Under the pieces are notes generated by a model, which saw nothing but the letters and a program-made list of their open reading frames with translations, had not been told where the DNA came from and made no database searches. From assembly GCF_048403405.1 (NCBI RefSeq), contig NZ_CP183129.1: a DNA stretch of 64,000 nt. The stretch is one strand, 5' to 3'. Positions 32,669 to 37,833 of this stretch are shown piece after piece; position 1 is the stretch's first letter, and each line of letters begins with the position of its first letter. The translations under genes were made by a program, and so were the position numbers. This DNA is from Escherichia coli. GTDB lineage: Bacteria; Pseudomonadota; Gammaproteobacteria; Enterobacterales; Enterobacteriaceae.

Positions 32669-32709
32669 AAGCCAACCTTAAGAACTTAAGGTTGGCTTAA
32701 TTTTGCTTT
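32669..32709 (+). terminator. rho-independent terminator downstream of adiC
   Basis: Hairpin aagccaaccttaag-aac-ttaaggttggctt followed by aattttgcttt. Confidence 0.6.
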
Positions 32710-32747
32710 GCGAGCATATGCGCACTTTGTTCGATGGAAACACCGTG

Positions 32748-35056: not shown

Positions 35057-35065
35057 TTGAATCTG

Positions 35066-36157
35066 ATGCGTTTTCTGCGCCGACCAATATCGCTGCGCCA
35101 ACGGCTGATATTGACCATTGGGGCCATTTTGTTGGTGTTTGAGCTGATCAGCGTCTTCTGGCTATGGCATGAAAGTACCGAGCAGATTCAGCTGTTTGAG
35201 CAGGCGCTACGCGACAATCGCAACAACGATCGCCACATCATGCGTGAGATCCGCGAGGCGGTCGCCAGCCTGATCGTCCCCGGCGTCTTTATGGTCAGCC
35301 TGACGCTATTTATCTGCTATCAGGCGGTACGCCGCATCACCCGCCCGCTGGCGGAGCTGCAAAAAGAGCTGGAAGCGCGCACCGCCGACAACTTAACGCC
35401 CATTGCCATTCACAGCGCCACCCTCGAAATCGAAGCGGTGGTTTCGGCGTTAAACGATCTGGTCAGTCGCCTGACCAACACGCTGGATAACGAAAGGTTG
35501 TTTACCGCTGACGTCGCGCACGAACTGCGAACGCCACTGGCGGGGGTGCGTTTGCATCTGGAACTGCTGGCGAAAACGCATCACATTGATGTAGCACCGT
35601 TAGTGGCACGGCTTGATCAGACGATGGAGAGCGTCTCCCAGCTGCTGCAACTGGCGCGTGCCGGACAGTCATTTTCTTCCGGTAATTATCAACATGTAAA
35701 ACTGCTGGAAGATGTCATTCTCCCCTCGTATGACGAACTCAGTACCATGCTCGACCAGCGACAGCAAACCCTGCTATTGCCAGAGAGCGCCGCCGACATC
35801 ACCGTTCAGGGTGATGCAACCCTGCTGCGGATGTTATTGCGAAACCTGGTAGAAAACGCCCATCGTTACAGCCCGCAAGGCAGCAACATTATGATTAAGC
35901 TGCAAGAAGATGGCGGAGCGGTCATGGCCGTTGAAGATGAAGGACCGGGTATTGATGAGAGTAAATGCGGGGAGTTGAGTAAAGCGTTTGTACGTATGGA
36001 CAGCCGTTATGGCGGGATTGGTCTGGGGTTAAGTATTGTCAGCCGCATTACACAGTTGCATCACGGGCAGTTTTTCCTGCAAAACCGGCAAGAGACTTCC
36101 GGCACGCGGGCCTGGGTACGGCTGAAGAAAGATCAGTACGTGGTAAACCAGATATAA
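35066..36157 (+). CDS. basS: sensor histidine kinase BasS (PmrB), 363 aa
   Basis: ORF track starts at TTG 35057; ATG at 35066; two TM segments, H-box (VAHELRTPL) and HATPase (EDEGPGI); matches recalled BasS. Confidence 0.9.
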   Translation: MRFLRRPISLRQRLILTIGAILLVFELISVFWLWHESTEQIQLFEQALRDNRNNDRHIMREIREAVASLIVPGVFMVSLTLFICYQAVRRITRPLAELQKELEARTADNLTPIAIHSATLEIEAVVSALNDLVSRLTNTLDNERLFTADVAHELRTPLAGVRLHLELLAKTHHIDVAPLVARLDQTMESVSQLLQLARAGQSFSSGNYQHVKLLEDVILPSYDELSTMLDQRQQTLLLPESAADITVQGDATLLRMLLRNLVENAHRYSPQGSNIMIKLQEDGGAVMAVEDEGPGIDESKCGELSKAFVRMDSRYGGIGLGLSIVSRITQLHHGQFFLQNRQETSGTRAWVRLKKDQYVVNQI

Positions 36158-36222
36158 AGAAAGCTGCTGACCACCAGCACGCTGAACACGGTAGTTAAAC
36201 TTTCATAAACACGGTTTTTCAT
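36133..36222 (-). CDS. pmrR: small membrane protein PmrR, 29 aa, convergently overlapping basS 3' end
   Basis: Hand translation of the minus strand: strong RBS ggaggagag then ATG giving MKNRVYESLTTVFSVLVVSSFLYIWFTTY*; matches recalled PmrR; overlaps the last 25 nt of basS. Confidence 0.75.
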   Translation of the reverse strand: MKNRVYESLTTVFSVLVVSSFLYIWFTTY

Positions 36223-36330
36223 TGCACTCTCCTCCGTTAACCTGGAGGAGAGTATGCGCGTCAGAGATTAAGTGAACCTTAAGACTTCAATTGGCCTGAT
36301 AAGACAGCGTCTCAGGCCATCCGTTTCAGC

Positions 36331-37833
36331 TTATTCATCAATTCGCGGATGTTGCTGCACCAGGCGGGTACGTTTCGCCTGCAAATCGGCAATCTCGTGG
36401 TCAATATCATCGATTTTCTGCTCGATATTATCGTAATGCTCGACGAGAATTTCCTTCGCTTCCTGTATATCTGACGCCGCCGGTGTCGCACCTTTCAACG
36501 GACGATTTGCCGTCTCTTTCATGGTTACGCCGGTGATTAAACCAACCACCGCCACTACCATCAGGTAATAGGCAGGCATCATCAGATTCTGCGAGCTTTC
36601 GACCAGCCAGGCCGCCAGTGTTGGCGTCAGACCGGCAACCAGCACCGAAATATTAAATGCCGCCGCCAGCGCGCTGTATCGGATATGCGTCGGGAACATC
36701 GCTGGCAAGGTAGAAGCCATAACGCCCGTAAAGCAGTTAAGGATCACCGCCAGCATCAGTAACCCGGCAAAAATCAGGCCGATGACGTTACTGTTAATCA
36801 GAATAAACGCCGGGATCGCCAACACAAACAGTGCAACACTACCAAGTAGCACAAACGGACGACGGCCAAAACGGTCACTCAGCAAGCCCATCACCGGCTG
36901 GACAAACAGCATACCGATCATAATGGCGATAATAATCAGCACCCCGTGGTCTTCGGAGTAATGCAGGTTATGCGACAAATAACTCGGCATATAGGTCAGC
37001 AACATGTAGTAAGTCACGTTGGTGGCAATTACCAGACCAATACACGTCAACAGGCTGCGCCAGTGTTTGGTGGCAATCTCTTTAAACGAGACTTTCGGGC
37101 CATCCTGCAAACCTTCGCGGTCGCCCTGTTCCAGTTTATCAACATGCTGCTGGAACGCCGGAGTCTCTTCCAGCGCATGGCGCAGGTAAAGCCCGATAAT
37201 CCCTAACGGCAGAGCAATAAAGAACGGAATACGCCAGCCCCAGTCGAGGAAGTTCGCTTCGCCGACAATGGTCGAAATTAACACCACCACGCCCGCACCC
37301 AGCACAAACCCGGCAATAGAACCGAAGTCCAGCCAGCTGCCCATAAATCCACGTTTACGGTCAGGGGAGTATTCCGCAACAAATATCGACGCCCCGGTAT
37401 ATTCACCGCCGACCGAGAAACCTTGTGCCATCTTACAGATCAACAGCAGAATCGGTGCCCAAATACCAATCGTATCGTAGGACGGTATTAAGCCAATACA
37501 GAACGTACTGATCGACATAATCACAATAGTGATAGCGAGGATCTTCTGGCGACCATATTTATCGCCCAACATACCAAAGAAGAGTCCACCAAGCGGTCGA
37601 ATCAGAAAGGGAACGGAGAAAGTGGCAAGTGCAGCAACCATCTGCACGCTGGGGTCAGCCCCCGGGAAAAAAACTTTACCTAATGCGTAAGCAACAAAAC
37701 CATAAACACCAAAATCAAACCATTCCATTGCATTACCCAGTGATGCTGCGGTAATGGCTTTACGCAGTTTACCGTCATCAATAATGGTGACATCACGAAG
37801 GGTAATTGGTTTTACTTTTTTCCTTTTCAGCAT
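36331..37833 (-). CDS. proP: osmosensing proline/glycine betaine:H+ symporter ProP, 500 aa
   Basis: ORF track starts at 37866; ATG at 37833 gives MLKRKKVKPITLRDVTIIDDGKLRK matching recalled ProP; MFS with C-terminal coiled-coil tail (DDIDHEIADLQAKRTRLVQQ). Confidence 0.93.
   Translation of the reverse strand: MLKRKKVKPITLRDVTIIDDGKLRKAITAASLGNAMEWFDFGVYGFVAYALGKVFFPGADPSVQMVAALATFSVPFLIRPLGGLFFGMLGDKYGRQKILAITIVIMSISTFCIGLIPSYDTIGIWAPILLLICKMAQGFSVGGEYTGASIFVAEYSPDRKRGFMGSWLDFGSIAGFVLGAGVVVLISTIVGEANFLDWGWRIPFFIALPLGIIGLYLRHALEETPAFQQHVDKLEQGDREGLQDGPKVSFKEIATKHWRSLLTCIGLVIATNVTYYMLLTYMPSYLSHNLHYSEDHGVLIIIAIMIGMLFVQPVMGLLSDRFGRRPFVLLGSVALFVLAIPAFILINSNVIGLIFAGLLMLAVILNCFTGVMASTLPAMFPTHIRYSALAAAFNISVLVAGLTPTLAAWLVESSQNLMMPAYYLMVVAVVGLITGVTMKETANRPLKGATPAASDIQEAKEILVEHYDNIEQKIDDIDHEIADLQAKRTRLVQQHPRIDE

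Follow-up and report, generated by a model that had tools for sequence, protein, structure and literature searches.

The short minus-strand open reading frame (ORF) at the 3' end of basS in this 64,000-nt stretch of Escherichia coli DNA (hereafter the window) is pmrR, an annotated and already studied E. coli gene, so that the first-pass annotation of this region was correct and its finding already known. We regard as very probable the overall explanation in which the ORF encodes PmrR, an already known membrane protein of 29 residues with one membrane span, and is controlled along the lines set out below. The 25-nt overlap with basS, the PmrA box, the translation, the membrane association and the phenotypes of this gene have been published already. 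In addition, we found a conserved hairpin over the ribosome-binding site (RBS) and unnamed counterparts of the gene in other genera, which we regard as modest leads.

The ORF starts with ATG and consists of 29 codons and a stop, with the product MKNRVYESLTTVFSVLVVSSFLYIWFTTY in the ORF listing of the window. The RefSeq coding sequence has the same limits (36133-36222), and the minus-strand frame that the first-pass annotation had drawn here is thus confirmed. On the minus strand the sequence 5' of the start reads ...GGAGGAGAGTGCA-ATG, and the strong RBS that had been claimed was found as GGAGGAGAG at 36235..36227. Since basS ends at 36157 with its stop codon included, the claimed overlap with the last 25 nt of that gene is also exact. 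The proposal that the product is PmrR, a small membrane peptide of the PmrAB lipid A circuit, is one on which RefSeq, NCBIfam and the published papers agree. The stated absence of pmrR from the ORF track would most simply be explained by a length cut-off. The coordinates of all features are collected in Table 1.

Table 1. Features at the pmrR locus and elsewhere in the window, with strand and basis.
Feature	Position	Strand	Basis
Second BasR/PmrA box, upstream of eptA, same regulon	32685..32701	+	pattern search
basS/pmrB sensor kinase gene, 363-aa form	35066..36157	+	ORF list, RefSeq
C-rich, G-poor stretch of pmrR-strand RNA inside basS	35900..36049	-	+ strand GC skew about +0.5
Rfam RF02052 'Enterobacterial sRNA STnc630'	36126..36291	-	covariance model
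pmrR coding sequence	36133..36222	-	ORF list, RefSeq CDS, NCBIfam, dN/dS
Tail-to-tail overlap of pmrR and basS, 25 nt	36133..36157	both	ORF coordinates
Perfect 10-bp inverted repeat ACTCTCCTCC-N8-GGAGGAGAGT	36226..36253	both	sequence, folding
pmrR Shine-Dalgarno GGAGGAGAG	36227..36235	-	sequence; aligned G-rich block in all orthologous leaders
Predicted start of BasR-dependent pmrR mRNA	36243 (within 2 nt)	-	inferred from -10 position
Predicted -10 hexamer CATACT of pmrR promoter	36251..36256	-	inferred: 10 nt after box, conserved positions
BasR/PmrA box CTTAAGGTTCACTTAAT of pmrR	36267..36283	-	pattern search; conservation; published deletion phenotype
Palindrome between proP stop codon and BasR box	36293..36318	both	sequence; hairpin in modelled read-through RNA
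proP, upstream of pmrR, same strand	36331..37833	-	RefSeq

Against the NCBIfam equivalog model for PmrR (NF033224), the peptide scored 73.9 bits with a cut-off of 30, and residues 1-29 matched profile positions 1-29; a Pfam search with the PmrR peptide gave nothing significant. The Kyte-Doolittle hydropathy reached a maximum of 1.81 over a sliding span of 19 residues, which fits a single membrane span. The 801 nt around pmrR were found in 5412 of the 5426 complete E. coli genomes, and the RefSeq label 'pmrR: LpxT activity modulator PmrR' lay under the match in all 15 of the best-matching E. coli records. In a strain with 100% identity the RefSeq limits of pmrR are exactly the same, and the RefSeq start of basS is a TTG at 35057. 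The K-12 MG1655 gene (b4703, 4332116..4332205) also encodes 29 amino acids and its product is 97% identical, with A27 where the window has T27. It is likewise convergent with basS (4332181..4333272 in K-12), with the same 25-nt overlap and the same PmrA box, and the window therefore carries an allele of the same gene with no difference of substance. The 29-codon frame is preserved in 15 orthologues from Escherichia and Citrobacter with a dN/dS of about 0.15, whereas in the two shifted frames nearly every pair of the same set is interrupted by stop codons. Judged from these codon comparisons, the pmrR ORF is under purifying selection.

The work on binding of PmrR to LpxT in Salmonella is reportedly that of Kato et al. 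in 2012. In the part of the Salmonella literature consulted, PmrR is described as binding and inhibiting LpxT, which lowers the amount of lipid A 1-diphosphate and feeds back on PmrB signalling. For E. coli, a 90-bp ORF overlapping pmrB by 25 bp has been described (PMC8004244), as have pmrR, its overlap with pmrB and its PmrA box (PMC8129183). In the latter study, deletion of the box in a PmrA-constitutive derivative of strain W3110 reduced resistance to polymyxin B and restored resistance to deoxycholate in an lpxT-dependent manner, which is genetic evidence that loss of the pmrR promoter box relieves LpxT inhibition in E. coli. Ribosome profiling or epitope tagging had been put forward as a check of translation, and published data of both kinds exist: PmrR is among the small proteins whose Ribo-RET translation-initiation signal is raised in low Mg2+, and PmrR-6xHis is present in the membrane fraction (PMC11429745). 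Deletion of pmrR caused a growth defect whose complementation required an intact start codon, an ATG-to-TAA change being sufficient to abolish it (PMC11429745). This growth defect was independent of lpxT in E. coli, and hence LpxT may not be the only target of PmrR (PMC11429745). MgrB and MgtS (PMC11429745) resemble PmrR in that they are very short, cross the inner membrane once and modulate a larger membrane protein, and in that an envelope-stress two-component system induces them; they regulate the PhoQP low-Mg2+ response. Unlike PmrR, they belong to other sequence families, and their targets are PhoQ and MgtA rather than LpxT.

The first-pass annotation had also pointed to a search for a BasR-binding site upstream of pmrR. 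Using the pattern YTTAAK-N5-YTTAAK, we found two matches in the 64-kb window where 0.12 would be expected by chance, and one of them is a perfect match, a site predicted at the sequence level, 44 nt before the pmrR ATG. The distance from box to ATG was 41-46 nt in all 55 leaders examined. A motif xAxACT lies 10 nt after the box, and the A at position 2 and the T at position 6 were invariant in 53 aligned leaders. In Escherichia this A lies outside the stem of the hairpin described below, so that its invariance is not accounted for by stem pairing. The eptA promoter in the window has the same box, the same 10-nt gap and an xAxxxT layout. We infer that xAxACT is the -10 hexamer of a BasR-dependent pmrR promoter. 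Its placement, together with the eptA-like layout, would put the BasR-dependent start at the end of the 5' arm of the hairpin; a start inside the hairpin is thus a prediction from promoter geometry alone. A sigma-70 promoter scan of 35900-36500 found no promoter, as one would expect if the promoter depends on an activator and lacks a -35 element. The Cappable-seq and SMRT-Cappable-seq supplements contained no entry near pmrR. In published reporter assays, neither a proP-pmrR fragment nor a pmrR upstream fragment gave significant activity in low Mg2+ (PMC11429745), which counts against the regulatory part of our account.

We also compared 80 pmrB loci from different species by tblastn and ORF scans. 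A convergent ORF of 28-33 codons was found directly after pmrB in about 55 of the 80, in genera including Escherichia, Citrobacter, Klebsiella, Raoultella, Kluyvera and Kosakonia as well as Phytobacter, Pseudocitrobacter, Enterobacter, Trabulsiella, Yokenella and Pluralibacter; among these 80 loci it was absent from Pectobacterium, Rahnella, Superficieibacter and Pseudescherichia. When 19 representative peptides were aligned, F21 and W25 (numbered on the peptide of the window) were invariant. The Klebsiella, Kluyvera and Phytobacter peptides gave no match to NF033224. In public records, the Klebsiella and Kosakonia-type versions that were looked up are called 'hypothetical' or 'uncharacterised', and the Kluyvera version carries no name. 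The overlap of the ORF with pmrB was 57, 42, 29, 25, 22, 11, 7, 4 or 0 nt in different genera and was replaced elsewhere by a gap of 1-7 nt. With extremes of a 57-nt overlap and a 7-nt gap within the Enterobacteriaceae, the length of the overlap is not conserved. What is conserved, to judge from these arrangements, is the tight convergent packing rather than the overlap length, and the 25-nt overlap of E. coli would be a by-product of that packing and no regulatory device in itself.

The leader of pmrR contains a perfect inverted repeat, whose 3' arm on the pmrR strand (36235..36226) contains the Shine-Dalgarno sequence and whose 5' arm (36253..36244) overlaps the predicted -10 hexamer and start region. 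On the pmrR strand the hairpin has a folding energy of -19.9 kcal/mol (z = -3.1). RNAalifold applied to a MAFFT alignment of the leaders returned no structure, the stems being out of register, and we used folding of each sequence separately and a comparison of cognate with chimeric stems in place of alignment-based folding. Folded in this way, 50 of 51 distinct orthologous leaders form the hairpin. The stem arms differ between genera (ACTGTCCTCA/TGAGGATAGT, ACTGCCTTC/GAGGGCAGT and ACTCTCCCA/TGGGAGAGT). Cognate arms had a mean energy of -17.3 kcal/mol compared with -11.1 kcal/mol for chimeras made across leaders (Mann-Whitney p = 7e-16, a value in which the relatedness of the sequences overstates their independence). 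These comparisons indicate that the stem is probably under selection and kept by compensatory changes. With regard to the strand on which it might act, the pmrR-strand RNA was the more stable in 16 of 24 sequence clusters and the other strand in 6 of 24, and the interior pairs comprised 27 G.U against 11 A.C, which favours the pmrR strand. Counted permissively, the pairs were almost balanced (55 G.U and 45 A.C), and the pmrR strand is thus favoured only by the interior-pair and cluster-level tests. The hairpin was rejected as a classical intrinsic (Rho-independent) terminator, because on neither strand does the stem run into a U-tract (tails GCAAUGAAAAA on the pmrR strand and AUGCGCGUCAG on the other). 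A terminator-like hit at 36179..36165, inside the pmrR ORF, was at chance level and was also rejected.

RNA of the pmrR strand across this interval had been named by the first-pass annotation as a further check, and it is documented in published K-12 data. In LB at OD600 2.0, Term-seq placed a dominant 3' end of the pmrR strand at 4332116 (PMC7815308, supplements), which is the A of the pmrR ATG, 4 nt past the stem. The same data set has a Rho termination region on the strand antisense to basS, at 4332468 (+), with a Rho score of 8.6 (p = 2.7e-37); without bicyclomycin the reads fall from 248 before it to 32 after it, and with bicyclomycin they go from 400 to 443 (PMC7815308). This position corresponds to about 35870 in the window, about 260 nt beyond the pmrR stop and inside basS. 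Taken together, the 3' end after the stem and the Rho region mean that pmrR-strand RNA exists without BasR induction. The C-rich, G-poor stretch of pmrR-strand RNA just before the Rho termination region is a possible Rho loading region, as far as its composition can suggest.

We propose a model in which the fate of an RNA would depend on where it begins. BasR bound to the box would direct RNA polymerase to the -10 hexamer, and the start near 36243 would sit inside the 10-bp hairpin, whose 3' arm holds the RBS. An mRNA started by BasR would lack the 5' arm, so its RBS would be largely open and it would be translated. A read-through RNA from upstream would carry both arms, its RBS would be closed and it would stay untranslated; such an RNA would be terminated by Rho within the basS antisense region and then trimmed back to the hairpin. 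In E. coli the likely source of read-through transcripts into pmrR is proP; the palindrome between its stop codon and the BasR box is one that we take to be REP-like. The modelled probability that the RBS is unpaired was 0.001 in the read-through RNA compared with 0.13-0.28 in RNA begun at 36243. Whether BasR-started RNA is translated and read-through RNA silenced in this manner is, in our view, about evenly balanced. To a broader proposal we give slightly less than an even chance: that the hairpin may be an insulator embedded in the promoter, with its 5' arm taken from the -10/start region, that it may have been kept by compensatory change across the Enterobacteriaceae, and that the same RBS hairpin design may also precede the unnamed 30-aa peptides that take the place of PmrR in Klebsiella, Raoultella, Kluyvera, Kosakonia and other genera. 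One point against the hairpin model is that, in several genera, the BasR box is immediately preceded by a terminator-like hairpin, beside which a second insulator seems redundant.

The design that we propose has a likeness in a mobile element. Fold-back inhibition shields the transposase of IS10 from outside promoters, and is said to have been described for IS10/Tn10 by Davis, Simons and Kleckner in 1985. As in the pmrR model, the 3' arm of the IS10 stem covers the RBS, the 5' arm precedes the start that belongs to the gene itself, and only a transcript that comes in from outside can fold and so be silenced. Unlike IS10, pmrR is a chromosomal member of a regulon and not part of a mobile element, its 5' arm overlaps the predicted -10 and start of an activator-dependent promoter, and a role for Rho and trimming is proposed.

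The main rival to the hairpin sub-model is that the symmetric stem acts in the 3' UTR of eptA-basRS, on the other strand, where it would stabilise or terminate the 3' end of the eptA-basRS mRNA, or terminate transcription in both directions between basS and proP; on this view the overlap with the pmrR RBS is secondary. We consider this unlikely. The repeat is symmetric and the + strand of the window folds about equally well (-20.2 kcal/mol), and the hairpin always travels with pmrB. In a published series of truncations, a construct ending at +86, within the loop, gave about 315-fold less pmrB mRNA than one ending at +126 (PMC8004244); the half-life of pmrB mRNA, however, was the same in the two constructs (PMC8004244). 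The stem has no U-tract on either strand, and a terminator scan did not call it. The wobble pairs favour the pmrR strand, the sole mapped 3' end at the hairpin belongs to the pmrR strand, and Klebsiella appears, by eye, to have a + strand U-tract terminator of its own beyond the box. We also considered whether the truncations (+86, +103 and +126; PMC8004244) merely removed the pmrR promoter, and set this aside: their end points fit, but the mRNA data of that paper would be left unexplained. The host strain of those constructs has its own chromosomal pmrR, which speaks against the promoter-loss reading as well.

The first-pass annotation had further suggested that the convergent overlap implies antisense interference between the basS and pmrR transcripts. 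This claim was sustained in part. No terminator separates the two genes, and with the Rho stop lying about 260 nt into basS the transcripts overlap over far more than 25 nt, while the ORF overlap on which the claim was built is not conserved in length. Some interference between the two transcripts is therefore plausible. A stronger version, in which pmrR would be transcribed mainly to control basS in antisense, with convergent transcription or an RNA duplex lowering or stabilising basS mRNA, is in our judgement decidedly improbable. It would account for the pmrR-strand RNA that runs into basS as far as the Rho region and is extended by bicyclomycin. [quoted passage not shown] It fits poorly with the variation of the ORF overlap across genera, and PmrR acts as a protein: the start-codon change that kills complementation (PMC11429745) and the restoration of the phenotype by ectopic pmrR both argue against an antisense role. 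Moreover, deletion of the pmrR box left the induction of arnT, a read-out of basRS, at about 50-fold (PMC8129183).

Rfam places a small RNA on the same DNA. The match to RF02052 scored 183.1 bits (gathering score 55) and covered model positions 1-166 of 166, and the hairpin described above is part of the STnc630 consensus structure. Rfam classes the locus as an sRNA gene. STnc630 originated as a Salmonella candidate between proP and basS, with 27 reads in Hfq co-immunoprecipitation compared with 1 in the control; Northern blotting failed to detect it. Because the 5' boundary of STnc630 is set upstream of the BasR box, it does not represent a mapped start. We read STnc630 as the pmrR mRNA region together with its promoter, rather than as a separate sRNA gene. 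That the locus is a non-coding, Hfq-associated sRNA in which the ORF is incidental could explain the full-length Rfam match and the Hfq reads. This is very unlikely, because STnc630 is a mere candidate with such a boundary, whereas the ORF is, on the evidence of its codons, under purifying selection, matches a curated protein family, is translated, and needs its start codon for complementation (PMC11429745). The sRNA-only reading is thus largely refuted, and a dual role of RNA and protein is possible. Finally, the 4.5 kb around pmrR are overlapped by 67 ORFs of 20 aa or more, so that an ORF of 29 codons could by itself be due to chance, but the notion of a chance open frame without a product has a negligible probability and is already refuted by the conservation, the family match, the promoter box and the published translation.

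In conclusion, the ORF convergent with basS is pmrR, which has already been studied for its part in the phosphorylation of lipid A and in resistance to polymyxin and bile salts. Should the hairpin work as we infer, it would account for the expression, through BasR only, of a 90-nt gene that is tightly packed between two convergent genes, and pmrR would then be a chromosomal example of translation that depends on the origin of the transcript. In Klebsiella and several other genera, a 30-residue membrane peptide labelled 'hypothetical' occupies the same position behind the same promoter, and this peptide may be relevant to work on polymyxin resistance in those genera.

We identified a perfect 10-bp inverted repeat in which the ribosome-binding site of pmrR would base-pair with the part of the gene's own predicted promoter that holds the -10 and the start. 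Compensatory changes preserve this repeat in about 50 distinct leaders, and published Term-seq data place an RNA 3' end 4 nt past it (PMC7815308).

Features at and around pmrR (window coordinates unless a locus is named)
Feature	Position	Strand	Note
Perfect 10-bp inverted repeat	36226..36253		pairs pmrR ribosome-binding site with -10 and start region of predicted promoter
Weak terminator-like stem and U-rich tail	36165..36179	-	inside pmrR ORF
C-rich, G-poor stretch, then Rho region equivalent	35870..36049	- (pmrR strand)	inside basS
Palindrome GGCCTGATAAGACAGCGTCTCAGGCC	36293..36318		12 nt past proP stop codon, 9 nt before PmrA box
eptA promoter	32685..32717	+	PmrA box, 10-nt gap, weak -10-like hexamer GAGCAT
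30-aa counterpart, Klebsiella pneumoniae ATCC 13883	L033:4050-4142		pmrB locus fetched for comparison

The predicted pmrR promoter can also be set beside plasmid constructs truncated after the pmrB (basS) stop codon, in which colistin resistance was absent at +86, partial at +103 and full at +126, in a host that carries its own pmrR, which complicates their interpretation (PMC8004244). These ends correspond to 36243, 36260 and 36283, which are the predicted pmrR start, a position just upstream of the putative -10, and base 1 of the PmrA box, respectively. The eptA and pmrR promoters have a common layout, which for eptA would predict a leader as short as about 24 nt. The palindrome in the proP-pmrR gap, which we take to be REP-like, differs in sequence among Escherichia species. 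At the other end of pmrB, records disagree on the start codon: RefSeq places it at TTG 35057 (+; 366 aa) in a 100% identical strain, and the K-12 basS annotation at ATG 35066 (+; 363 aa).

Within basS, the published Rho termination region at K-12 position 4332468 falls after the C-rich stretch (PMC7815308), and therefore antisense transcription extends about 260 nt into basS.

We also found that Klebsiella, Raoultella, Kluyvera, Kosakonia, Phytobacter, Pseudocitrobacter and others (loci L020-L076 of the pmrB loci fetched from other species) encode a membrane peptide of 30 aa in the place of pmrR, accompanied, as at pmrR, by a PmrA box and a hairpin over the ribosome-binding site. The Klebsiella, Kluyvera and Phytobacter versions searched gave no match to the NCBIfam PmrR model, and public records, where they name these counterparts at all, call them "hypothetical protein".

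The pmrR locus itself gave a full-length match (36126..36291, minus strand, 183 bits) to Rfam RF02052, "sRNA STnc630". In Salmonella, the original STnc630 candidate showed 27-fold Hfq enrichment and was negative by Northern blot. The terminator-like stem within the pmrR ORF also appears in the Rfam STnc630 consensus drawing; it is at chance level, a scan having found one against 0.6 expected. RF02052 seems to represent the pmrR mRNA region together with its promoter box, and not a separate sRNA.
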